From positions 1 to 58,429 of the forward strand of contig JBHHVI010000005.1 in the NCBI GenBank assembly GCA_046754225.1: 58,429 bases of DNA. Direction: 5' to 3'. Below the pieces are notes generated by a model. That model made no database searches, was not told the origin of the DNA, and saw only the letters and a list, made by a program, of their open reading frames with translations. The stretch is from Thermodesulfobacteriota bacterium. Lineage in GTDB: Bacteria; Desulfobacterota; GWC2-55-46; JADFVP01. This document shows, one piece after another, positions 1 through 37,550 of this stretch. Each line of letters begins with the position of its first letter. Positions within the stretch are counted from its first letter, which is position 1. The position numbers were made by a program, and so were the translations under genes.

Positions 1-1264
1 CCTCTTCTTCATGGACCCCTTCTTCAAGGACCTTTGCTTCCGGGACCTTTGCTTCCGGGACCTTTGCTTCAAAGATCTCTTCAAAGACGCCGGTTACACC
101 CCTTACGTACCCGTCCACGGAAAATCCTTCCACCACCCGCTTTCTACCCGTCCCGCCCATCTCAGCCCTCATGGCAGGGGAATCGGTCAATTCCGCCACC
201 CTTTCCGCGATATTACCGGCGCTCGCCGGGTCCACGAGGAAACCCGTCCCGCCATCGATAACGAGTTCGGCGGGGCCCGTGACGCTCGCGGCCACAACGG
301 GCCTACCCATGAGCATCGCCTCGAGCACCACCCTCGGAAGCCCCTCTTTCTCCGAGGCGAGCACAAAGACATCCATGGCGTTTATGTAAGAGAGGGCGTC
401 AGAGGAAAAACCCGTGAAGAAGATTTTTTTGTCTAACCCCGCCTTGCGTACCTTATCCTTGAGGGGGTTCATCTCAGGCCCCTCGCCGACGACAACGCAT
501 TTTATTTTTTTACCCGCCTTATCCAAAATGGAAACCGCGTCCACGAGCAGGTCCACCCTCTTTCTCTTTATAAGAGAACCCACCGTCCCTATCAAAAGGT
601 CATCTTCACTTATGCCGAGCCCCTCTTTCACCTCCGCCGGCCCCCTCCCGGGCTTCAACCCCGGGTCTATGCCGTTATATACGACGACGCATTTTTCTTC
701 CCTCACCCCGCTCCCGATAAGCCCTTCCTTCACCCCCCCTGAAACGCATATGACCTTTGATACCGACTGGTTTACAGCTTCTGTCTCAAAGCGGGTGAGC
801 CTGACATCGATCCTCGAATGCTGCACGCAGGGTATTCCGGCGCCCTTCGCGGCCAGAATCCCCTCGATGTTTGACGAGGGCTGGTTGTTCATGTAGATGA
901 GGTCGAAGCCGCCGCTCTTCAAGACAGAGAGTATGGCCTTTGCCGCGGGCTGTATCCTTTCGGCGAAGTCGTGGAACCTGATGTACCTCCTTTTAAGGGG
1001 GGGTATGGGGGAAAGAACCCCCCTTATGACCTCTTTTACCGCCTTGGCATAGAATTTCTTCCTTATATCGAGGTGGATAAAATCCACCCCCATTCCTTCA
1101 AGTTCGCGCCTGATATCAGACCCGGCGCCCTTTTTATAGTTATTGTAAAAGAGGGCCGAGAATTCGTAGCGCTTCCTGTCCACCCTCTTAAGGAGTTCAA
1201 TGAGGCTCACCGTGCCGCCGCCCCACTCTTTTCCCGTATCGAGTACGAGTATTTTTTTCTTCAT
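1..1264 (-). CDS. Glycosyltransferase family 4 (GT-B), 3' end runs off the window
   Basis: Not in the ORF track because there is no stop inside the window. ATG at 1264 reads MKKKILVLDTGKEWGGGTVSLIELLK. The same frame near the window start gives the GT4 motif EGLPRVVLEAMLMGRPVVAASVTGPAELV and ends ...EAKVPEAKVPEAKVLEEGVHEEE. Confidence 0.85.
   Translation of the reverse strand, partial: MKKKILVLDTGKEWGGGTVSLIELLKRVDRKRYEFSALFYNNYKKGAGSDIRRELEGMGVDFIHLDIRKKFYAKAVKEVIRGVLSPIPPLKRRYIRFHDFAERIQPAAKAILSVLKSGGFDLIYMNNQPSSNIEGILAAKGAGIPCVQHSRIDVRLTRFETEAVNQSVSKVICVSGGVKEGLIGSGVREEKCVVVYNGIDPGLKPGRGPAEVKEGLGISEDDLLIGTVGSLIKRKRVDLLVDAVSILDKAGKKIKCVVVGEGPEMNPLKDKVRKAGLDKKIFFTGFSSDALSYINAMDVFVLASEKEGLPRVVLEAMLMGRPVVAASVTGPAELVIDGGTGFLVDPASAGNIAERVAELTDSPAMRAEMGGTGRKRVVEGFSVDGYVRGVTGVFEEIFEAKVPEAKVPEAKVLEEGVHEEE
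13..72. repeat. 15-bp in-frame tandem repeat (GGACCTTTGCTTCCG), ~4 copies, encoding EAKVP repeats in the GT4 tail
   Basis: Units at 28-42 and 43-57 are exact, 58-72 is near-exact and 13-27 is degenerate. Confidence 0.85.
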
Positions 1265-1265
1265 C

Positions 1266-1898
1266 TTAACTCTTGCCCCTGCGCCGGGCCGTAGCGATAA
1301 TACTGGGGTAATAATCCATCCTCAGTAGTTTTATAAGGGGCCGGTAAAAGGCGGCCCAGAGCCTCTGCTTCCATTTGAACTTTCCGCTCCTGAATATCTC
1401 TATGTCGCTGTAGCCCGTGGAATGGAGAAGGCCGTAGAGCTCGTCGTGGCGTACAGGGGTTATATGCGTGCAATCGCGCCACAGGTATACGGGGTGGCAT
1501 ACGTTGGGGGTGCTTATCACGATGAGGCCGTTTTCGTTCAGGATCGTCGCGGAAGTCCTTAAAAACTCCACTATCTCCTTGGGCGTAAGATGCTCCACGA
1601 GCTCGAAGGCCGTCACTACGTCAAAGGTCCTGTCTATTTCGTCGAAATTGTAATAATCGTGCTTTAGCGTCCTGTCCACGTCAAAGCTGAAATAATCCGC
1701 CTTTATGCCCGCCCTCTCTATGAGTTCACCTGTCGTCCTGTCGTGGGCGCCCACATCAAGGATGGCGTCGCCCTCTTTCAGGAGCCTCTTTAAGATGTCC
1801 ATCCTGCCGGTGACGGTGGGCAGTTTTAATATATCGGGAAGCCTTCCCGTCGCCTCTTTTCTTCCCCGGAATATCTCCGTCCAGTTTATCTCAGCCAC
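1266..1898 (-). CDS. Class I SAM-dependent methyltransferase (polysaccharide-cluster type)
   Basis: ILDVGA motif I, FDVVTAFELVEHL and ISTPN motifs. Overlaps the upstream glycosyltransferase. Confidence 0.8.
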   Translation of the reverse strand: MAEINWTEIFRGRKEATGRLPDILKLPTVTGRMDILKRLLKEGDAILDVGAHDRTTGELIERAGIKADYFSFDVDRTLKHDYYNFDEIDRTFDVVTAFELVEHLTPKEIVEFLRTSATILNENGLIVISTPNVCHPVYLWRDCTHITPVRHDELYGLLHSTGYSDIEIFRSGKFKWKQRLWAAFYRPLIKLLRMDYYPSIIATARRRGKS

Positions 1899-2970
1899 GG
1901 CCCCTCTTTTCCATGTTTATAGTCCTGTTGAAAGTATCCATGATTACGTCCGCCACGTCGTCGTAGGTGTAGTGTGTTGTTACGTGTCTGTAGCCGGCCT
2001 CCGCCACCTTTTCCCTCTCTTCGCTGTGGGTGACATAGTAGTCGAGCTTACGCGCGAAGTCATCGAACCCCTCATAGAGTACCACATGCTCGCCCGGTGT
2101 AACCACCGACTTCATGTCCCTTGAGCCGTCGGTAAGCAGACACGCCCCGCATGCCGGTACCTCTAAGACCCTCATGTTCATGCCGCTCCGTTTCTCGCCC
2201 TCGCCGAAACCCCAGGTGGTTACGTTAACGACTACCCGGCTCTCGTTATAAAGCCTTATGAGGTCGTCCCCTTCTATGTACTTCCCCCTGACCTTTCTCC
2301 TGAGCCTCATATTAAAGGGGTTCTTCTTGAGCCACTTGGAGCCGTAGATAACGGCGTTTTCAGAAACATTTAAAGCCCTCTCCATAAACTCCATCCTCTT
2401 TTCCGTCCATCCGCCCACAAAACACCAGTCATATTTTTTTTCACATTCCACGGGCCGGAATACCGATGTATCCACTGAGTGGTGGAGTAAACTTATGTTA
2501 CGAAGCCCCCTCTTTTCTCCTTCGGCCACGCAGGCCGAGTTCATAAAAAAATAATGGTCGAAGCCGGGCGCCTCCCCCAGGGGCTCCTCCATCCTCTCTT
2601 CCCTCTCTATCCACCAGCCGAAGAGCTGCGCCCCCTTTTTTGCCTCGTCAAGACAATCTTCAGTGAACCTCCACCCCCTTATTATAAGCACAAGGTCCGG
2701 CTTTACCTCCCTGACCCTTTCGAGAAATTTGGCGCTCCTGTACCGGAGATGGGACAGGGGGTGGTCCTGGAAAAAGACCTTTTTCTTGGGCAGTACCCTA
2801 AGGTTATGGGCCATCTTGTTTGTGTAGTGTATTACGTACTTGTCGAACCAGTTGTTCACGTCGGAATGGAACCCGAAGGCCTCGACGCCCTTCTTCTCAA
2901 AGGCCCTCTTGAGGTAATCCACTATGGGAGGCCTCGGAAAGTACGCGATTAAAATTTTTTTTAGGGACAT
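1891..2970 (-). CDS. Glycosyltransferase, CgeB/Glyco_trans_1_2-like
   Basis: Motifs YDWCFVGG, LYNESRVVVN, NMRVLEVPACGACLLTD and REKVAEAGYRHV. Confidence 0.8.
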   Translation of the reverse strand: MSLKKILIAYFPRPPIVDYLKRAFEKKGVEAFGFHSDVNNWFDKYVIHYTNKMAHNLRVLPKKKVFFQDHPLSHLRYRSAKFLERVREVKPDLVLIIRGWRFTEDCLDEAKKGAQLFGWWIEREERMEEPLGEAPGFDHYFFMNSACVAEGEKRGLRNISLLHHSVDTSVFRPVECEKKYDWCFVGGWTEKRMEFMERALNVSENAVIYGSKWLKKNPFNMRLRRKVRGKYIEGDDLIRLYNESRVVVNVTTWGFGEGEKRSGMNMRVLEVPACGACLLTDGSRDMKSVVTPGEHVVLYEGFDDFARKLDYYVTHSEEREKVAEAGYRHVTTHYTYDDVADVIMDTFNRTINMEKRGRG

Positions 2971-3007
2971 TTTTTATACCTTAAATTAAAAAAACAGGCT
3001 TAATCTT

Positions 3008-4126
3008 TTATGCGCGTTCAACGCCCAGTATATCTTCCACGGCCCGGTCTACTTCCTCCACCGAGATCTGTTCCATGCACTCCTGGTAAGCGCACTTCTT
3101 GCTCACGCAGGGCTCACAGGTGCGCTCCTTCTTTATAATCCTGTGTAGCTCACGATCGTAAAGGGGGCCGGTGCGGGCCGGGTCGCTTACGGCGTAAAGG
3201 GCGACTACCGGGGTCTTTAAGGCATAGGCTATATGCATGGGGCCGGTGTCTCCCGTGACAAAGACATTGAGCCTGCCAATGAGGGCCGCTGTCTCCTTTA
3301 TGGATATCTTGCCTGACGCCACTATAGCGCCCCCGCCTATCCCCTCTGCTATGCGGGAGCAGAGCCCCTTCTCTTCAGGACTTCCTGTAAGGACTATCCT
3401 TGAGGCCGGAAATTTTTTAATCAGAATTTTTCCCAGTTCAATGAAACGCTCCGGGAACCACTGCCTGCTGAGGGTGGAGGCGCCGGGCTGAAAGCCGATT
3501 AAAAGATCCCCCGGGGCCGCGCCCTCTTTAACCAAAAACCTCTCCGCCGAATTTTTAAAGGTATCCTCAATAAAAATATCCATCTCCGGGCCGTCGGAGC
3601 AGCACCCGGCGAGCTCAATCGTCTTCAGCCGCGCCAGAATTCCGTGGCCCAGCCCCTCCCACGTTACAACAGGCTCACGGTTGGAAAGTAAAAAATTGAA
3701 CCTGTTCGCGTTGGGCGTCTTTATTATGAACCTCGCGCCAGAGAGATAACACAGAGGCGTGGCCTGCGGCTCGTTGCCGTGGAGTATAAGGGCGAGGTCG
3801 AATGAATTACTCCGAAGCGACCTTATAGTTGAAAAAAAACTCTTCCAGCCCCCGTAGTAGGGTATGACGCCGTCTATATTCGGGTTGTTGGAGAAGAGTT
3901 CCATGTTCCTGCTATTAAAAAAGGCGACAATCCTCGCCCCGGGGTACCTCTTCCTCACCGCCCTTATGGCGGGCGTTGAGAGGAGCGTGTCCCCTATGGC
4001 CGTACTCGACACGATGAGTATGTTTTTTACCAGACCCGGGTCAAAGTCCTTAATGTCCGCGGCGCGGCCGTCCCTCGCCTTGAGTATCCTCAAATACTTA
4101 TAGAGAAACCCCCCGAAAAGACTCAT
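3008..4126 (-). CDS. Glycosyltransferase family 9 (heptosyltransferase-like)
   Basis: AIGDTLLSTPAIRAVR, FVTGDTGPMHIAYAL and a C-terminal CEPC-x4-C-x4-C. Confidence 0.9.
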   Translation of the reverse strand: MSLFGGFLYKYLRILKARDGRAADIKDFDPGLVKNILIVSSTAIGDTLLSTPAIRAVRKRYPGARIVAFFNSRNMELFSNNPNIDGVIPYYGGWKSFFSTIRSLRSNSFDLALILHGNEPQATPLCYLSGARFIIKTPNANRFNFLLSNREPVVTWEGLGHGILARLKTIELAGCCSDGPEMDIFIEDTFKNSAERFLVKEGAAPGDLLIGFQPGASTLSRQWFPERFIELGKILIKKFPASRIVLTGSPEEKGLCSRIAEGIGGGAIVASGKISIKETAALIGRLNVFVTGDTGPMHIAYALKTPVVALYAVSDPARTGPLYDRELHRIIKKERTCEPCVSKKCAYQECMEQISVEEVDRAVEDILGVERA

Positions 4127-4935
4127 AGGACCCTGCCCTTAATCTTCAAGTAAAAATCGGCCATAAGGGGGTTCGTGTATATCCTGACCCTCTTCTGAAA
4201 CCACCGGGCGCCGTCCTTAACGGCTATCCTCTTTATGGCAAAGGGGTCGGAGCCCTTTTTGACAACTCCGCGCTCGGTCGTAAAGACCCCCCTGTAACCA
4301 AGACCTTTTGCCGCGGCCACGGAGCCGCCATTAAACCTCCCCCTGGGCCAGCAGAGGTATCTGCAGGGTCTTTCCAACTCCGTCTCTATTCTCTTTTTAC
4401 TATCCCGGAGTTCCGCTTGAACCTCCTCCTTTGAGATGTTATCGCAACCCGCGTGGGTGACGGTATGCGAGCCGAACTCCACAAGGCCGCTCAAAGCCAT
4501 CTCTTTTACCATATCCCAGTCCATAATAACCCTTGAAAAAGCCCCCTCCTCTATAATGGCCTTTGAAGCGGCGTGGGTGGGCGCCGCCTTTTTGTACTCC
4601 TCTTGAAGGGCGGCCTTATCCGCCCCCTCCCCTGAAGCCTTGTCCACCCAGGCCGTGGCGATGAAAAGAGCGGCCTTAACGCCGTAGGCCTTGATGAGAG
4701 GGAAGGCGTAATAAAAATTGTCGAGATAACCGTCATCAAAGGTAATGACCACAGCCTTACCCCCCGGATCATACTCCCCGTCAATATAGCCCCGGAGTTC
4801 GTCGAGGCTCAGGGTCTTATATCCGGCGTCTTTTATAAACTCGAGGTGCGAAGAAAAAACCTCGGGGGTAACGGTTATCATATCCCCTTTGTTGGGGTTT
4901 ACGTGGTGGTACATGAGCACGGGCAGCGGGTTCAT
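4123..4935 (-). CDS. Polysaccharide deacetylase (NodB/CE4 family)
   Basis: PVLMYHHV, ITFDDGY, FGSHTVTH and CWPRG motifs. Confidence 0.9.
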   Translation of the reverse strand: MNPLPVLMYHHVNPNKGDMITVTPEVFSSHLEFIKDAGYKTLSLDELRGYIDGEYDPGGKAVVITFDDGYLDNFYYAFPLIKAYGVKAALFIATAWVDKASGEGADKAALQEEYKKAAPTHAASKAIIEEGAFSRVIMDWDMVKEMALSGLVEFGSHTVTHAGCDNISKEEVQAELRDSKKRIETELERPCRYLCWPRGRFNGGSVAAAKGLGYRGVFTTERGVVKKGSDPFAIKRIAVKDGARWFQKRVRIYTNPLMADFYLKIKGRVL

Positions 4936-6041
4936 GGACGCCCCCGACCTCGACCGTTACAAAGGCCGGCATAGAGCCCGTGCATCCTCTCAACCATCCT
5001 CTCCGTTGAAAATTCCTTTGTCACCATTCTTCTGCCCTCTTCGCCCATTGAGCGCCTTAAGGCGCCGTCTTTAAGAAGCTTTATAATGGCGTCGGCGAGG
5101 GCGCCGCTATCTTCGGGCTCGACGAGTTGTCCCGTAACCCCTTCGACAACTACCTCGGGCACGCCCCCGACCCGTGTTGAGATAACGGCCCTGCCCATGG
5201 CCGAGGCCTCGAGTATGGACGTGCCGAGGGCCTCCTGAAGCGTGGGGAGCACAAAGAGGTCTATGCCCTTCAAGACACACTCCACGTCGGCCCGGAGCCC
5301 CAGGAGCGTTACGCTCTTCTCTATCCCCAGTTCCTTTATCTTCCCCTCGATATTCTCTCTCTGCGGACCGTCTCCCGCAAAGACGAAGTTTACCCTGGGC
5401 AACTCCTTTAAGACAAGGGGTATGGCGTCGAGGAGCAGGTGGTGCCCCTTTTTTCTCCTTAGAATAGCCACCGTCCCCACGATCAGGTCATCCTGGCCGA
5501 AGCCGGCCCCCTGCCTGAAGGTATGGGGGGTCTTGTCGGGGTTGAACCTCTCGAGGTCTATCCCCGTGGGTATCGTCACCACCATGCCGCCCTTGAGCCC
5601 CTTGCCGTCAACAAGGTGGCGCCTCACGTACTCGCTCACCGTCACCACCCTGTGGGGCAGGAGCGAATAGGTGGTCTTCGAGGTAATGGGTAGCGCCAGA
5701 TGACGTGTCCTCACTATAACGGGCCTGCGCCTTGAGAGCCTCGCGGCGACGGCGCATAAAAAGCTGTCCACACCGCTGTGCGTACTCACAACGTCCACCC
5801 CTTCTCTCTTTATGAGGCCGGCCACGAACTTTACCGCCGCGATGTCGTGTGACGAGCGGAGCCCGTTGGTCAGGACCTCGAGGCCCGCCGCCCTGGCGCG
5901 CTTCTCAAGGCCGCTACCGGGCCTGCAGAGGACTATGACACGCTCTCCGAAGGTCCTTTTAAGGCCCAGGCATTCATGTAGGGTCCTGTTCTCCTGCCCG
6001 CCCCAGCCCGAGGAACTCTCTGTGTGGAGTATTGTCAACAT
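4932..6041 (-). CDS. Glycosyltransferase family 4
   Basis: ILHTESSSGWGGQE N-terminus, RRKKGH and EALGTSILEASAMG motifs. Confidence 0.9.
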   Translation of the reverse strand: MLTILHTESSSGWGGQENRTLHECLGLKRTFGERVIVLCRPGSGLEKRARAAGLEVLTNGLRSSHDIAAVKFVAGLIKREGVDVVSTHSGVDSFLCAVAARLSRRRPVIVRTRHLALPITSKTTYSLLPHRVVTVSEYVRRHLVDGKGLKGGMVVTIPTGIDLERFNPDKTPHTFRQGAGFGQDDLIVGTVAILRRKKGHHLLLDAIPLVLKELPRVNFVFAGDGPQRENIEGKIKELGIEKSVTLLGLRADVECVLKGIDLFVLPTLQEALGTSILEASAMGRAVISTRVGGVPEVVVEGVTGQLVEPEDSGALADAIIKLLKDGALRRSMGEEGRRMVTKEFSTERMVERMHGLYAGLCNGRGRGRP

Positions 6042-31337: not shown

Positions 31338-32606
31338 TCAATCACCGGTTATCTTTATAGCGCAGAGGCTTCCGCACATGGTGCAGACATCGGAGTCCAC
31401 GGGCGGAGCCGTCTCCCTTAAGACCCTGGCCGTTTCCGGGTCTATGGAGAGCCTTATCTGCTCATCCCAGTCAAGTTTTTTTCTCGCCCCTGAGAGCCTT
31501 ATATCGCTATCCATGAAGCGTCTGTCCTTGGCTATGTCGCCTGCATGGGCGGCGATCCTCGCGGCCACTACGCCTTCTTTCACGTCTTTCACTTGAGGAA
31601 GCCTCAGGTGCTCCGAAGGGGTCACGTAGCATAAAAAATCCGCCCCCGCCGAAGCGGCTATGGCGCCCCCTATGGCTGAGGTGATGTGATCGTAACCCGG
31701 GGCTATGTCGGTGACAAGGGGACCGAGGACGTAAAAAGGCGCGCCGTTACAGAGCCTCTTTTGAAGGAGGATATTCGCCTCTATCTGGTCTATGGGCACA
31801 TGGCCCGGTCCCTCTACCATTACCTGAACGCCCTCCTCTCTGGCTCTACGCGCTAAGTCCCCAAGGGTGATAAGCTCCTCTATCTGGGCCCTGTCAGTGG
31901 CGTCGGCAAGACAACCTGGCCTCAAGCCGTCTCCGAGACTCAATACTACATCATATTTCCGGGCGATCTTTATGAGGCGTGAAAAATCCTCAAAGAGAGG
32001 GTTTTCCCTCTTATTGTACCTCATCCACTCGGCGGTGAGCGCTCCGCCCCGGCTTACCACCCCCATTATCCTCCCCTCTTCCTTTATCCTTTCAAGGGCG
32101 GCGCGGGTGACGCCTGAGTGGAGCGTCATGAAATCCACGCCCTCCTCGGCCTGCCTCTCGATGACCTCGAAGATATCCTCGGGGTCTATCTCGACAAAGG
32201 ATTTTTCACGCTCCCTGCTCGTAACGGCGGCCTCGTATATGGGGACGGTCCCTATAGGCACGGCCGACTCATCAAGTATGGCCCTCCGTATCTTTTTAAG
32301 GTCTCCGCCTGTTGAAAGGTCCATCACCGCGTCGGCCCCGGCCTCTACAGCGGCCTTGAGTTTCTCGATCTCCAGGTTAATGTCGGCGCTGTCCTCGGAG
32401 GTCCCTATATTGGCGTTCACCTTGGTGCGGAGCCCCTTTCCCACGCCAAGCCCCTCTATATTCTTACGGAGCGCGTTCTTTACGACTATGACGGTCCCGT
32501 CTTCGACGCACCGGCGTATATATTCAGGGCTGACCCCCTCGGTGGAAGCGGCCCTTTTCATCTCTTCCGTTACCTCGCCCTTTCGGGCGCGTTCAAGCTG
32601 TGTCAT
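31338..32606 (-). CDS. thiC: Phosphomethylpyrimidine synthase (short type)
   Basis: TKVNANIGTS, MDLSTGG, SRGG, EGPGH, PGYDHI and C-terminal CTMCGSLC motifs; located in the thiamine operon. Confidence 0.9.
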   Translation of the reverse strand: MTQLERARKGEVTEEMKRAASTEGVSPEYIRRCVEDGTVIVVKNALRKNIEGLGVGKGLRTKVNANIGTSEDSADINLEIEKLKAAVEAGADAVMDLSTGGDLKKIRRAILDESAVPIGTVPIYEAAVTSREREKSFVEIDPEDIFEVIERQAEEGVDFMTLHSGVTRAALERIKEEGRIMGVVSRGGALTAEWMRYNKRENPLFEDFSRLIKIARKYDVVLSLGDGLRPGCLADATDRAQIEELITLGDLARRAREEGVQVMVEGPGHVPIDQIEANILLQKRLCNGAPFYVLGPLVTDIAPGYDHITSAIGGAIAASAGADFLCYVTPSEHLRLPQVKDVKEGVVAARIAAHAGDIAKDRRFMDSDIRLSGARKKLDWDEQIRLSIDPETARVLRETAPPVDSDVCTMCGSLCAIKITGD

Positions 32607-32626: not shown

Positions 32627-33370
32627 TTAAAATTTTTGTTCAAATAAGTCTAAAAATTGCCCGGCAAGTTTCCCGGCCTTCTCCCTCTCACCGCCGGCGC
32701 CGAGTATGGCCGATATTACGGCCGCGCCCCTTGCGCCGGCCCCTATGACTTCACGGACGTTTTTACTCTTAATCCCCCCTATGGCGTAGACCGGGACAAA
32801 CACACCGGCCGCCACCTCTTTAAGGGTCTTTATTCCCACAGGCTCGCCGTAAGGCGCCTTGGATGGCGTAAAATAGACAGGGCCCAGAGTTATGTAATCG
32901 GCGCCGTCTTTTTGGGCCTTCAGGGCCTCGGCGAGGCTGTGAGTTGAAACGCCTATAAGCGCGCCGGGGCCAAGACAACCCCGCGCGTCGGCCGGAGAAA
33001 AACTCCTCTGGCCGAGATGCACGCCGTCGGCCCCGCAAAGCTCCGCTATATCGACCCTGTCGTTGATGATAAGCGCGGCGCGAAACCTTTTCGTAAGCCC
33101 CCTCAAGGCCAGCGAAAGCCTGAGCAAGTCTCTGGCGGGAAGCCCCTTTTCCCTTAACTGCACGGCCGTCACCCCGCCGTCGAGGGCCGCGGCCACGGCG
33201 TCTACAAAGCCGCCTTCGTCGCGGTAAAGACCCCTGTCAGTTACAAGACAGAGTCCGTAATCTTTATCTGCATTTAATCCGGCTGACAATTCTAATATTA
33301 ACCCCTGCTTCCTTAATGTTAACCCCTGTCTCTTGCCTTCCCCTCTTTGCCCGCCTTTTCCGGCTCCCAA
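32627..33370 (-). CDS. thiE: Thiamine phosphate synthase (true start uncertain, possibly the TTG at 33289)
   Basis: VQLREK, IINDRVD, DGVHLGQ, GVSTH, TPSK and AIGGI motifs. Confidence 0.92.
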   Translation of the reverse strand: MGAGKGGQRGEGKRQGLTLRKQGLILELSAGLNADKDYGLCLVTDRGLYRDEGGFVDAVAAALDGGVTAVQLREKGLPARDLLRLSLALRGLTKRFRAALIINDRVDIAELCGADGVHLGQRSFSPADARGCLGPGALIGVSTHSLAEALKAQKDGADYITLGPVYFTPSKAPYGEPVGIKTLKEVAAGVFVPVYAIGGIKSKNVREVIGAGARGAAVISAILGAGGEREKAGKLAGQFLDLFEQKF

Positions 33371-34125
33371 AGTCTTCTGTTTATGATTATCAGAGCGGCT
33401 ATGATTATAAGCGCCGCGCTTACGACCTGAGCGGCGCGAAGCCCACCGAGCATCAGACTGTCGGCCCTGAAGGATTCCACAAAGAACCTCCCCGCCGAAT
33501 ACAAGCCCACATAAGAGGCGAAGATAAAGCCGTCACTGTGTTCCCTCTTTCTAAAGAAAAACCAGAGGATCGAAAATATCGAGAAGTTGATAAAGAGTTC
33601 GTAGAGCATCACCGGGTGCAGGGGGATGCCCGGAAATTGCCTTCCGGCCACACTCTCGGGAGAAAAGACAACGCCCCATGGCAGGTTCGTGGGCACACCG
33701 TGGGCGTCGCCGTTCATGAAGTTTCCGAACCTGCCGAAGGCCTGACCCAGTATGAGGACCGGCGCCACGGAGTCGGCCATCTGCCAGAACCGTATTTTTT
33801 TACGCCTTAGATAGAGCCACGCGGCGCCTATGCCCCCGATAAGTCCGCCGTGGATGGCGAGCCCGCCGTGCCATATTGCCGGCATCTCGCGGGGAAAAGC
33901 GGCGTAATAGCCCAGATTGAAGAGTATATAGTAGACCCGCGCCACGACCACGCCGCCGACGACGGTCCATATTATAAAATTCAGGACCTCATCATCGGTG
34001 AGTTTAAGCCCCTTTCTCTTTACCTCTCTCTTTATGAGATAAGTGCCCACAACAATGGCGACAACGTACATAAGCCCGTAAAAACGTATCTCTATGGGGC
34101 CGAATTTAAAAAGAATGGGGTGCAA
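33319..34125 (-). CDS. lgt: Prolipoprotein diacylglyceryl transferase
   Basis: IRFYGLMY, HGGLAIHGG, GRFGNFMNGD, HPVMLYE and RFFVESFR motifs. Confidence 0.93.
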   Translation of the reverse strand: MHPILFKFGPIEIRFYGLMYVVAIVVGTYLIKREVKRKGLKLTDDEVLNFIIWTVVGGVVVARVYYILFNLGYYAAFPREMPAIWHGGLAIHGGLIGGIGAAWLYLRRKKIRFWQMADSVAPVLILGQAFGRFGNFMNGDAHGVPTNLPWGVVFSPESVAGRQFPGIPLHPVMLYELFINFSIFSILWFFFRKREHSDGFIFASYVGLYSAGRFFVESFRADSLMLGGLRAAQVVSAALIIIAALIIINRRLWEPEKAGKEGKARDRG

Positions 34126-34179: not shown

Positions 34180-34950
34180 TTACTCGACAAGCCCTTCCAC
34201 GGGGCTTGAAGCCGCGGCGTAAAGTTTTTTAGGTATGCGGCCCGCGAGGTAGGCGAGCCTTCCGGCCTCGGTGGCGCGCCTCATGGCCTTTGCCATGGAG
34301 ACGGGGTCCTTTGCAGAGGCTATGCCCGTGTTCATAAGGAGCCCGTCGCAGCCAAGTTCCATGGCGAGCGCCGCGTCAGAGGCGGTGCCCACCCCGGCGT
34401 CCACTATCACGGGGACCTTCGCCGACTCGAGTATTATCCTGATGTTATGGGGGTTCCGTATGCCGAGTCCACTCCCTATGGGCGCGGCAAGGGGCATAAC
34501 CGCCACGCAACCCGCCTCTTCGAGCTTTTTCGCCATCACCGGGTCGTCTATCATGTAGGGGAGCACCTTGAAACCCTCTTTGACGAGCGTCTTCGCGGCG
34601 CCGAGGAGCGCCTCGTTGTCGGGAAAAAGCGTCCTTTCGTCTCCGATAACCTCGAGTTTTACGAGGTCCGTGTCGAGGGCCTCCCTGGCGAGCCGAGCCG
34701 TCCTTACGGCGTCTTCGGCGGTGTAGCACCCCGCGGTATTGGGAAGGATCGTATACCTCGACGTATCTATATGGTCAAGGAGCGACTCCTCTTTACCCCC
34801 GAGGTTCACCCTCCTTACGGCAACGGTCACTACTTCCGCGCCTGAAGCGTAGAGGGCCTCCTCCATTATCTCGTTAGACGTATATTTTCCGGTACCGACC
34901 ATAAGCCGTGATCGAAAATTCCTCCCGCCTATCTTAAGCGCGTCATCCAT
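34180..34950 (-). CDS. thiG: Thiazole synthase
   Basis: [34 protein letters not shown] and VDAGVG motifs. Confidence 0.97.
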
Positions 34951-34976: not shown

Positions 34977-35177
34977 TTAACCTCCCCCGACCATCCTTAT
35001 AATCTCAACACGGTCCCCTTCTTCGAGGACCTTCTCCCCGTAACTCCCCCTGGGGACCACTTCTCTGTTGACATCGACGGCTATCCCCGCCCTTTTTATC
35101 TCAAGTTCCTCAACAAGGTCTTCGAGTGTCATACCGTCACTAACCTCACGGGACTCGCCGTTTATCTTGAGGATCAT
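34977..35177 (-). CDS. thiS: Sulfur carrier protein
   Basis: 66 aa ubiquitin-like protein ending GDRVEIIRMVGGG. Confidence 0.95.
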   Translation of the reverse strand: MILKINGESREVSDGMTLEDLVEELEIKRAGIAVDVNREVVPRGSYGEKVLEEGDRVEIIRMVGGG

Positions 35178-35186
35178 ACCCGCCCC

Positions 35187-36557
35187 CTAAAAGAAAATGT
35201 CACGCCCGCCATCCTCAATCTCCTTGAGCCTCTCTTGAACGGCCTTTCGCATCACGGGATCTTTTATCTCCTTGAGGCTTAATTTTATCGCCTTTTCAAT
35301 CGACCCCTTCATGCCGTTCTTTGAGTAGTCCGTCAAAAATTCCTTGAGCGTAAGAGCGGCGTTGGCGCTGCAAAATTTTTCCATTGACCCCGAGGCGGTC
35401 TTATCCGTAAACTCCGCCCCGGTCCTCCCGACGCGGTAGCATGTGGTGCAGAGGCTCGGCACAAACCCCTCATCGATTATGGACTTCATAACCTCGGCGA
35501 GGCTCCTGTGGTCGTTGGTGGAGAACTGCTCGAGGGAGGGTTTTTGTTTTGTATTGACGGCGTATCCGCCCGGGTCTGTGCGCGACGCCGCGCTCATCTG
35601 GCTCGCCCCTGAATGCACAAGGGCGCTCCTGAGGCCCGCCGGCTCCCTCGTGGAGACGACAACGCCGGCGGTGGGCACGGCGAGGCGGAATACGGCCACG
35701 ATCTTCTTGAGTTCGGTCTCCGTAACAGGGGCGGGTATCTCCTTTAACCCGGAGCCCGCGGCGGGCCTGAGCCTTGGAACGGATATTGTATGGGCGTGGG
35801 CGCCGAACTCCCCGTAAAGGTGCTTTGAGTGGGCGATTGTACAGAGGCAATCGAACCTGTAGTCGTAAAGGCCGAGGAGCGGGCCTATCCCCACGTCCCT
35901 GAAACCCGCCCCAACGGCCCTGTCCATTACCGAGAGCCTCAAGTCAAACCCGCTCTTACGGCCCGAGGGGTGCATTGCTTTATAAGTATCCCTGTGGTAG
36001 GTCTCCTGAAAGGCCTGGTATACGCCCGCGCCCGCCTTCTTTATTTCTCTAAAACTCTCTTTATCCATGGGCGGGGCGTTTAAGTGCACTATCCTCATGC
36101 CCGTATTTTCATAAACCACCTTAATGGCGGATACGATATAATCAACACCCCACCTCGGGTCCTCGCCCGTTACGAGAAGCACCCTTTTAAAGCCCATGGA
36201 TTCAAGCCTTCTGGCCTCGCTGACCACCTCTTCCATTGAAAGGGCCTTTCTCTGGACATCCCTGTTGGGGCCCCTGAACCCGCAGTAAACGCAGCTGTTG
36301 GTGCAATAATTTGAAAGGTAAAGGGGGGCGAAGAGGACGACCCTTTTGCCGAAAAGACGCTCCTTTACCTCTCCGGCCTTTTTATAAAGGGCCTGAAGAA
36401 GCCCTTTGTCCTCAATAGAGAGGAGCAGGTTAGACTCTTCAAGTCCGAGCCCCTTGGCCCGCCCCGCATCTTTAAGTATGGAGAGGACTTCCCCTTTCTT
36501 TGCCGGGGGCGCCCCTTTAAGAGCGGTTATCTTTTCAAAATCTATAATCAACTTCAC
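35187..36557 (-). CDS. Radical SAM tyrosine lyase of the ThiH/HydG family, HydG-type sequence in the ThiH position
   Basis: FAPLYLSNYCTNSCVYCGF, FQETYH and HTISVPRL motifs, a C-terminal CTTCYR-x20-C motif and a final GGRDIFF. Confidence 0.9.
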   Translation of the reverse strand: MKLIIDFEKITALKGAPPAKKGEVLSILKDAGRAKGLGLEESNLLLSIEDKGLLQALYKKAGEVKERLFGKRVVLFAPLYLSNYCTNSCVYCGFRGPNRDVQRKALSMEEVVSEARRLESMGFKRVLLVTGEDPRWGVDYIVSAIKVVYENTGMRIVHLNAPPMDKESFREIKKAGAGVYQAFQETYHRDTYKAMHPSGRKSGFDLRLSVMDRAVGAGFRDVGIGPLLGLYDYRFDCLCTIAHSKHLYGEFGAHAHTISVPRLRPAAGSGLKEIPAPVTETELKKIVAVFRLAVPTAGVVVSTREPAGLRSALVHSGASQMSAASRTDPGGYAVNTKQKPSLEQFSTNDHRSLAEVMKSIIDEGFVPSLCTTCYRVGRTGAEFTDKTASGSMEKFCSANAALTLKEFLTDYSKNGMKGSIEKAIKLSLKEIKDPVMRKAVQERLKEIEDGGRDIFF

Positions 36558-36598: not shown

Positions 36599-36625
36599 AA
36601 AAAAACCGCCCTGAGGGTCAGGCGG
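36599..36625 (-). terminator. Intrinsic terminator of the TPP riboswitch expression platform
   Basis: Minus strand CCGCCTGACCCTCAGGGCGG followed by a 7-U run, between the aptamer and the first thi gene. Confidence 0.75.
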
Positions 36626-36677
36626 CTCTACTTTCCATTAAGACTGGAAGGTATTCTACTGGAGAGTATTGATGAAA

Positions 36678-36826: not shown

Positions 36827-36855
36827 AAGATATCAGCAGTTAAAGGATTAGTCAA
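36827..36855 (-). promoter_or_regulatory. Candidate sigma70 promoter of the thi leader
   Basis: Minus strand TTGACT, 17-bp spacer, TATCTT, just upstream of the aptamer. Confidence 0.55.
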
Positions 36856-36947: not shown

Positions 36948-37550
36948 TCAGATGAGTTTACTTGCGGAGACTATGGACTCGGCGATCTCCCTCATCTTTT
37001 TATTCTCTTTCTGGGAGTGGCTCTGCAGCACTTTGAAGGCGTCATCCTCGTTGAGGTTGCACCTTTTCATTAAAATACCCTTGGCCCGCTCTACAAGTTT
37101 ACGGGTCTCGATGGCGTCTTTCAGGTCGTCAACCTCTGACTTGAGACTGTTAAACTCCTCATAGCGCGCCATGGCGAGCTCTATGGCCGGCTCAAGCTGC
37201 TTCTTTGTAACCGGCTTTATAAGGTACGCGAAGACGCCGGCGTCTATGGCCTGTGAAGCAACCTCGCCCGAAGAGAGTCCTGTAATCAGTATGATGGGGA
37301 TGGTCTTTTTGGAGCTTATCGCCCTGGCGGCCTCGATGCCGTCCATCTCCGGCATCTTGATGTCCATGATAACAATGCCCGGGTTGAGCTTTTCAACGAG
37401 TTCCACCGCCTCACGGCCGTTATCAACGGAACCCACGACATCAAAACCCATGACCTCGAGCTGGGTCTTCAGGAACTGACGCGTCTTGTCGTTATCCTCG
37501 GCGATAAGGACTTTATGATTGCCGGATTTTTGCAAGGTTTTTGCCTTCAT
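36948..37550 (-). CDS. Response regulator with an ANTAR RNA-binding domain (NasT/PdtaR-like)
   Basis: Receiver motifs LIAEDN, IMDIKMP and YLIKP; ANTAR motif RKLVERAKGILM...AFKVLQSHSQKENKKMREIAE. Confidence 0.92.
   Translation of the reverse strand: MKAKTLQKSGNHKVLIAEDNDKTRQFLKTQLEVMGFDVVGSVDNGREAVELVEKLNPGIVIMDIKMPEMDGIEAARAISSKKTIPIILITGLSSGEVASQAIDAGVFAYLIKPVTKKQLEPAIELAMARYEEFNSLKSEVDDLKDAIETRKLVERAKGILMKRCNLNEDDAFKVLQSHSQKENKKMREIAESIVSASKLI

Follow-up and report, generated by a model that had tools for sequence, protein, structure and literature searches.

In a 58,429-nt stretch of DNA from a Thermodesulfobacteriota bacterium (contig JBHHVI010000005.1 of assembly GCA_046754225.1, referred to here at its full length as the window), we identified a radical S-adenosylmethionine (SAM) protein of the HydG type that is encoded as the first gene of a thiamine operon, behind a thiamine pyrophosphate (TPP) riboswitch. 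ThiH and HydG both cleave tyrosine to p-cresol and dehydroglycine; ThiH passes the dehydroglycine to ThiG, and the auxiliary site of HydG consumes it, giving CO and CN. We propose, with a probability of roughly three in four, that the window protein and its closest relatives, a clade here termed THI_long, are tyrosine lyases that supply dehydroglycine to ThiG and would thus fill a ThiH-type role, a reading of reaction and product from sequence that is favoured by the surroundings of the gene, by the lack of alternatives and by the retention of the tyrosine site. On present data the window protein belongs to a sister clade to all sampled HydG and is not nested among them.

Family assignment and own genome

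The HydG type of the window protein was borne out by its family score, its motifs and its fold. It scored 410.2 bits against the NCBIfam HydG model TIGR03955, above the cut-off of 312.15, and 315.4 bits against the ThiH model TIGR02351, under the cut-off of 380. The HydG of T. italicus (4wcx) aligned end to end with residues 8–456 at 413 bits and 44 % identity, and ThiH (7pd1) gave 195 bits in an alignment confined to the barrel. Translation of the open reading frame (ORF) agreed with the original prediction in length, motifs and C-terminal end: the radical SAM motif CX3CX2C is made up of C85, C89 and C92 (CTNSCVYC), an exact CX2CX22C near the C-terminus, counted from the translation, comprises C370, C373 and C396, HTISVPR spans residues 256–262, LTLKEFLTDY spans residues 402–411 and the chain ends in GGRDIFF. 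The protein is ∼90 residues longer than the single-domain ThiH of ∼370 aa, the extra part being the C-terminal auxiliary-cluster domain. An AlphaFold2 (AF2) model built on 32 clade members, with a predicted local distance difference test (pLDDT) value of 90.9, matched 4wcx_A over the whole chain in Foldseek, with template-modelling (TM) scores of 0.95/0.96 and a root-mean-square deviation of 1.6 Å over 459 columns; the TM score to ThiH 7pd1 was 0.73. A complex prediction for the window protein with ThiG (score 0.00, mark 0.32) gave no evidence either way.

The genome from which the window derives has 113 contigs totalling 2.0 Mb, with a completeness rating of 100 %. A profile search of this genome detected no H-cluster domain (HydA), nor did we find in it a HydF over the cut-off, a short ThiH, a ThiO or a Thi4; thiC is located within the same operon and one ThiF-family gene elsewhere. 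Without the window gene, ThiS, ThiG and ThiE would have no dehydroglycine source. A second HydG-family gene was present on another contig, C59, where it adjoins a HydE-like gene; its product scored 515 bits against the HydG model and is 44 % identical to the window protein. The original prediction had stated that thiO, a short thiH, hydA, hydE and hydF are absent from the window, which is correct, and across the whole genome this extends to thiO, short thiH, hydA and hydF; a correction concerns the HydG and HydE-like pair on C59, which lies outside the window. A separate thiH or thiO together with hydAEF elsewhere and a lack of complementation had been named as evidence that would count against the prediction; no thiH, thiO, hydA or hydF was found genome-wide.

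Thiamine linkage in relatives

To place the gene among its relatives, we surveyed the window's order (41 genomes), sampled its phylum (301 genomes) and, for global coverage, added 27 long and 12 short cluster representatives from a 50 %-identity library. An orthologue with 54–68 % identity to the window protein was present in 39 of the 41 order genomes, the two without one being G001, which is 71 % complete, and G035. Downstream of the orthologue, thiS, thiG and lgt follow in the order loci wherever the contig continues. The window's lineage is uncultured, and public records label it as Deltaproteobacteria or Thermodesulfobacteriota bacterium; a more distant THI_long branch is labelled Candidatus Deferrimicrobiaceae.

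Matches above the HydG cut-off occurred in 60 of the 301 genomes of the phylum sample. Flanks of ∼5 kb were retrieved around 18 short matches and around every one of the 71 long matches that lie outside the own genome. Each HydG-family ORF was classed by its best BLAST hit (the window protein, the C59 paralogue or weak to both) with genomic context ignored. After removal of duplicates, this yielded 62 unique THI_long genes, 56 of which have thiS/thiG within 3 kb (the other six end at a contig edge on that side), whilst none has a HydE-like gene within the same distance. Among the 54 unique genes of the HydG class, thiS/thiG was found within 3 kb of none and a HydE-like gene within 3 kb of 34. 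Short ThiH was represented by 23 unique genes, with thiS/thiG within 3 kb of 22. Members of the THI_long clade are 44–69 % identical to the window protein and score 368–450 bits against TIGR03955; HydG-clade genes beside HydE or in HydA-positive genomes mostly reach 460–918 bits against the same model.

The original prediction had also pointed to the frequency with which HydG-type genes sit behind TPP riboswitches as informative. Of the 20 order loci scanned, 19 had a TPP aptamer upstream of the orthologue. In the phylum sample, 16 of the 19 genomes with a THI_long gene had one at gathering score directly upstream of that gene; the remaining three consist of one aptamer at 54.2 bits, one gene at a contig edge and one gene without any TPP match. 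No HydG-class gene in the phylum sample has an adjacent TPP aptamer.

The H-cluster domain Fe_hyd_lg_C was detected neither in the 19 THI_long genomes from the phylum sample nor in 24 further THI_long genomes of the order (0/43 together), and was present in 36 of the 41 genomes whose only long genes are of the HydG class. ThiH over the cut-off was likewise absent from all 43 THI_long genomes, where matches under the cut-off were the long genes themselves and one HydE-like gene. The same 43 genomes contained no ThiO over the cut-off, the best match reaching 58 bits against a threshold of 250.8. As in the own genome, a HydG-class paralogue accompanies the THI_long gene in 10 of the 43.

Phylogenetic position

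With HydE-like proteins as the outgroup, short ThiH branches first and the long proteins then split into THI_long and HydG. Supports are given here as values of the Shimodaira–Hasegawa-like approximate likelihood ratio test (SH-aLRT). Both long clades were recovered in a 93-row LG+G4 tree (THI_long 98, HydG 97), in a 107-row tree that includes the 27 long and 12 short global representatives (99 for each) and in a 47-row LG+C20+F+G4 PMSF tree (96 for each, and 98 for the two together). The phylogeny with ThiH and HydG references, which had been proposed as a check for this protein, thus placed it outside ThiH and in a sister clade to the sampled HydG. Within the global library only three full-length THI_long clusters exist (P0245, P0251 and P0253), so that the clade looks compact.

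Trees were additionally built from the two parts of the protein. In the core-only tree THI_long (98) and short ThiH (98) are separate and HydG is not forced into one clade, and in a tree of the C-terminal domain only, THI_long is split from HydG at 99. On these two trees, the idea that the protein is a chimera, with its core from ThiH and its tail from HydG, is rejected. A recently repurposed HydG, nested inside HydG, is unsupported by the three full-length trees, and is left open by the core-only tree. The original prediction had offered a repurposed HydG, an evolutionary intermediate or a bifunctional enzyme; of these, an intermediate or sister line fits the trees better, a recent repurposing was not upheld and, for reasons given below, bifunctionality is unlikely.

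Conserved and clade-specific residues

Residues are given in window numbering and were compared in an alignment of the clades. C370, C373, C396, N399 and H256 are invariant in THI_long (62 of 62 sequences each) and, as members are only 44–69 % identical to the window protein, the conservation of the three cysteines and of H256 shows that these motifs are not due to chance. H256 was found in all 62 THI_long sequences, in 47 of 47 HydG sequences of the canonical and HypC::HydE-associated types (the latter described below) and in none of the 23 short ThiH; among histidines, it alone is conserved across HydG and THI_long without being so in ThiH. In the 4wcx chain, the aligned position is 279. The ligand of the dangler iron in T. 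italicus HydG is His265, according to PMC8855341. Assuming an offset of 14 residues from a tag, we take H256 to be the equivalent of this ligand. Further positions at which THI_long agrees with HydG and differs from short ThiH are K65, R72, V74, R125, R155, H188, D221, Q320 and S368.

The tyrosine site shows a mixed picture. According to PMC9046217, E158 of TcThiH faces the tyrosine carboxylate, and in HydG an acidic residue elsewhere stands in for this Glu. The aligned position in our proteins, 160, is N in all 62 THI_long sequences and E in all 23 short ThiH, and V129 occupies the place of the substitute acidic residue of HydG. The TcThiH tyrosine-site positions 80, 300, 306 and S321, also taken from PMC9046217, correspond to Y80, R304, R310 and S325, and are kept in the clade. 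The 39 canonical HydG sequences of the phylum sample are themselves variable here: in seven, Glu occupies the position of N160, as it does in ThiH, and position 129 is Glu in 16 and Val in 16, so that a pairing of N160 with an acidic residue 129 is not universal for HydG. In four of the 39 the second C-terminal cysteine is replaced by Gly, possibly as an artefact of the alignment.

THI_long and HydG are in turn distinguished by a set of near-invariant swaps, written here with the THI_long residue first: F69/Y, F123/H, T152/G, I156/R, V179/T, L228/F, H or another aromatic residue at 254/G, T or S at 296/Y, A297/T, V300/I and L369/F, in addition to H158/N, which separates 62 of 62 THI_long from 54 of 54 HydG sequences. 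At positions 69, 123, 156, 158, 179 and 296 the window protein has F, F, I, H, V and T, and the respective states are 94–100 % conserved within each clade, with the exception of position 296, which is T, S, A or C in THI_long. At positions 69, 123 and 228 THI_long carries the ThiH state. The strands of the AF2 model relevant to these positions are β2 (125–130), β3 (156–160), β4 (177–181), β6 (257–259) and β7 (298–302), and most clade-specific positions are situated at, or just before, the N-terminal strand ends of the barrel. In HydG, that side of the barrel is where the C-terminal domain has been placed, together with the delivery channel and the dangler iron (PMC10114646). As judged from the topology of the model and not from coordinates, the clade-specific swaps would therefore lie on the side of the HydG channel and dangler iron.

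Other HydG-like genes

The second HydG gene of the own genome belongs to an arrangement of its own. On C59 (locus L172, positions 148–4948), genes for the small and large subunits of a group-3-like [NiFe] hydrogenase have beside them, on the opposite strand, the HydG-clade gene and a gene in which a HypC domain (residues 1–65) is fused to a HydE-like radical SAM protein (HypC::HydE). In the own genome HypD had no matches, HypE reached 125 bits against a threshold of 251.6 and HypF 38.7 bits against 466. The HydG and HypC::HydE pair formed a clade of seven in trees (C59, L093, L094, L095, L105, L115 and L121), and an eighth locus with the same pair, L118, was placed elsewhere in the HydG clade; both [NiFe] subunit genes adjoin the pair in C59, L115, L118 and L121. 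HypD was found in none of 11 genomes with a second HydG-class gene, the HypC::HydE fusion itself being observed in seven of these, and in all five comparison genomes without a second HydG-class gene; the [NiFe] large subunit was present in all 16. As such, the C59-type pair looks like a tyrosine-based route to CO and CN and may serve the [NiFe] hydrogenase. A literature search found no description of a [NiFe] system with HydG and HypC::HydE, and this lead could open the question of the CO and CN source for [NiFe] hydrogenases in organisms without HypD.

Two other kinds of HydG-like protein were seen. Loci L146–L152 (genus g88) hold a third, long-branched group of full-length HydG-like proteins with 259–289 bits to the C59 paralogue. 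These keep the three C-terminal cysteines; the dangler-iron His is replaced by R in six of seven and E132 by Q in seven of seven, and no thiS/thiG or HydE-like gene is nearby. In genomes G231, G257 and G280 the g88-type protein is the only long form, and no HydA was found in those genomes. The second kind is represented by P0246, P0248, P0249, P0258 and P0281, cluster representatives of 800–1100 aa in which a long N-terminal part precedes a HydG-like C-terminal half with 36–42 % identity to the window protein; in P0246, P0248 and P0249 the window protein was matched in two stretches.

Proposed function and alternatives

In the pathway that we propose, the THI_long enzyme would cleave tyrosine to p-cresol and dehydroglycine (2-iminoacetate), from which ThiG would build the thiazole with ThiS-thiocarboxylate and 1-deoxy-D-xylulose 5-phosphate, whilst TPP would shut off expression via the upstream riboswitch and terminator. 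The barrel alone can carry out ThiH chemistry. The replacement, in the lower half of the barrel, of HydG-invariant and mostly polar residues (Y69 to F, H123 to F, R156 to I, N158 to H, T179 to V and Y296 to T/S) would keep dehydroglycine from breakdown to CO and CN, and the swapped residues plausibly disable this step.

A number of points weigh against this assignment. By the equivalog cut-off of NCBI itself, the window protein is a HydG. The function is assigned from context and from missing alternatives, and the absences come from draft or metagenome-assembled genomes, though the same picture emerges in 43 such genomes; the survey as a whole covers one phylum and the 27 long and 12 short global representatives. 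All tree supports are SH-aLRT values from quick searches, the root depends on the HydE outgroup, and HydG is not forced as one clade by the core-only tree. Neither the Glu of ThiH nor the acidic substitute of HydG is present, so that substrate binding may differ in detail. Finally, the invariance of the auxiliary cysteines and of the HydG-specific His across all 62 members points to a selected function beyond a plain ThiH role. The second Fe–S site must have some selected role, for which an electron relay or a structural function is our default guess.

An evolutionary extension of the proposal is that THI_long survives as an intermediate between ThiH and HydG. According to this scenario, the C-terminal Fe–S domain with its histidine would first have been gained by a tyrosine lyase of the thiamine pathway, HydG would have been derived later and the second site would act in thiazole synthesis, for example in the handling of dehydroglycine or cysteine sulfur. 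Read with parsimony, the tree points to acquisition of the domain by an enzyme of the thiamine pathway before HydG arose, a result that depends on the root. We consider the scenario tentative, and put it well below even odds.

The complete auxiliary site would also be accounted for if the enzyme were bifunctional, feeding dehydroglycine to ThiG and, from the auxiliary site, CO and CN or an iron synthon to another metalloenzyme such as a [NiFe] hydrogenase. The [NiFe] large subunit was indeed found in 16 of the 16 genomes tested, and the anaerobic source of CO for these hydrogenases is, to our knowledge, unsettled. The genomes without HypD, however, carry a separate canonical-clade HydG with HypC::HydE by the hydrogenase genes, and the existence of this dedicated pair speaks against the hydrogenase being served by the thiamine-linked enzyme; conversely, the four tested THI_long genomes without such a pair (G015, G021, G028 and G102) all have HypD, and no role is left over. 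Control by TPP alone would moreover starve the hydrogenase of its cofactor when thiamine is plentiful, residues invariant in HydG are replaced, and a part in maturing an H-cluster finds no recipient, as no THI_long genome has an H-cluster domain. We therefore regard bifunctionality as improbable.

Slightly less probable still is a direct part of the second cluster in thiazole chemistry, whereby the sulfur of the dangler-iron cysteine would go to ThiS/ThiG, or the site would hold or pass on dehydroglycine. Such a part would fit an invariant auxiliary site in an enzyme with no conserved partners other than ThiS, ThiG and ThiE, as well as an operon without thiF or thiI, and the auxiliary site of HydG binds free cysteine, the sulfur of which is handed on (PMC10114646). 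Nevertheless, ThiS keeps its C-terminal GG and a ThiF-family gene is present elsewhere, so that an ordinary sulfur relay is available. We also know of no precedent for such a role. The last alternative, a genuine HydG that makes the Fe(CO)2(CN) synthon and is merely co-transcribed with thiamine genes, agrees with the score above the NCBIfam equivalog cut-off, with the name HydG that NCBI gives to the relatives and with a fold and full set of cluster ligands as in HydG, but is very unlikely given that the H-cluster domain is missing from all 43 genomes and from the own genome, which also lacks HydF, that several families of the phylum retain the linkage to thiS/thiG and a TPP riboswitch, that the pathway would otherwise have no dehydroglycine source and that the protein falls outside the HydG clade.

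Organization of the thiamine operon

The operon reads, all on the reverse strand, TPP aptamer, terminator, window gene, thiS, thiG, lgt, thiE and thiC (Table 1), and contains neither thiF nor thiI. That the gene lies behind a TPP riboswitch and 9 nt before thiS, as originally described, was confirmed by the Rfam match and the ORF coordinates, the spacer between its stop codon and the thiS start being 35178–35186. The aptamer matched the full model (positions 1–105 of 105) and is separated from the window gene by 109 nt; the hairpin and T-run found between aptamer and start codon are likely the expression platform of the riboswitch. For the sigma-70-like consensus, seven sites were found compared with a mean of 4.1 in shuffles.

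The presence of lgt inside the operon, between thiG and thiE, with an overlap with thiE of 52 nt as called, is a peculiarity of a subset of these loci. Its position is kept across the whole order and in two same-class genomes of family f10, and lgt is absent at that place in more distant THI_long loci (L127–L144 except those of the own order). Directly upstream of the thiamine promoter region is a gene for an ANTAR-domain response regulator, which is probably unrelated to the operon.

Table 1. Features in and next to the thiamine operon of the window (positions within the 58,429 nt; −, reverse strand)
Feature	Position	Strand	Basis
ANTAR-domain response regulator	36948–37550	−	Response_reg and ANTAR domains
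Promoter-like site, sigma-70-like (TTGACT, 17 nt, TATCTT, with TG)	36827–36855	−	Consensus match
TPP riboswitch aptamer, RF00059	36667–36793	−	Rfam, 68.1 bits (gathering score 54.3)
Terminator-like hairpin, 10 pairs, then T-run	36602–36629	−	Pattern match
THI_long gene, HydG-type radical SAM protein	35187–36557	−	ORF, GTG start, 456 aa
thiS, sulfur carrier, C-terminal GG	34977–35177	−	TIGR01683, 78.4 bits (cut-off 37.45)
thiG, thiazole synthase	34180–34950	−	PF05690, 385 bits
lgt, prolipoprotein diacylglyceryl transferase	33319–34125	−	PF01790, 266.8 bits
thiE, thiamine phosphate synthase	32627–33370	−	TIGR00693, 183 bits (cut-off 145)
thiC, HMP-P synthase	31338–32606	−	TIGR00190, 623 bits (cut-off 460)

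Significance and comparison with known systems

Public records name the clade inconsistently, as NCBI uses HydG and JGI, for the same clusters, 2-iminoacetate synthase. The equivalog cut-off of TIGR03955 admits the thiamine-linked clade, which amounts to a systematic annotation error if the proposed function is correct: use of hydG as a metagenome marker for [FeFe] hydrogenases would give wrong counts for these lineages, whose thiamine synthesis would appear incomplete in pathway reconstructions. A literature search, with most subscription journals and supplements outside its scope, found no thiamine-linked HydG or long ThiH described, and none is described in the accessible parts of PMC3543383, PMC3226654, PMC9431212, PMC11736057 and PMC9046217. 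An already characterized long-ThiH clade, which according to the original prediction would have explained the protein, was accordingly not found in the literature covered (supplements and most subscription journals being outside it).

THI_long represents a natural near-twin of HydG, in which both cluster sites and the histidine are kept, ∼12 otherwise invariant positions are changed and the imine should be released. The clade-specific positions provide a short, testable list for residue swaps in both directions. The clade also bears on the origin of the H-cluster maturation machinery from vitamin B1 metabolism. If THI_long is indeed a surviving intermediate, this dozen of swaps would mark exactly what a barrel requires for the conversion of dehydroglycine to CO and CN.

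Compared with HydG (T. italicus 4WCX, C. hydrogenoformans 4RTB; TIGR03955), THI_long shares the length, the CX3CX2C and CX2CX22C motifs, H256 and the whole-chain fold, as well as N at the place of the ThiH Glu and K65, R72, R125, R155, H188 and D221. It differs from HydG in its position as a sister clade, in the ∼12 replaced residues and in dehydroglycine as the expected product; furthermore, THI_long occurs without HydA or an adjacent HydE, and in the own genome without HydF, being linked instead to thiS/thiG behind a TPP riboswitch. With ThiH (T. carboxydivorans 7PD1, E. coli; TIGR02351) it has in common the partners thiS, thiG and thiE, the control by TPP, the tyrosine-site residues and presumably the reaction, whilst the extra ∼90 residues with the auxiliary-cluster domain, N160 in place of Glu and the separate clade set it apart. 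ThiO, a glycine oxidase, and Thi4 provide alternative routes to dehydroglycine or thiazole and have unrelated folds. The closest parallel in behaviour is HydG engineered to lack either its C-terminal domain or its dangler iron, which acts in the manner proposed for THI_long; the natural enzyme, in contrast, keeps the domain and all ligands, and the change would lie in residues of the barrel and cavity.

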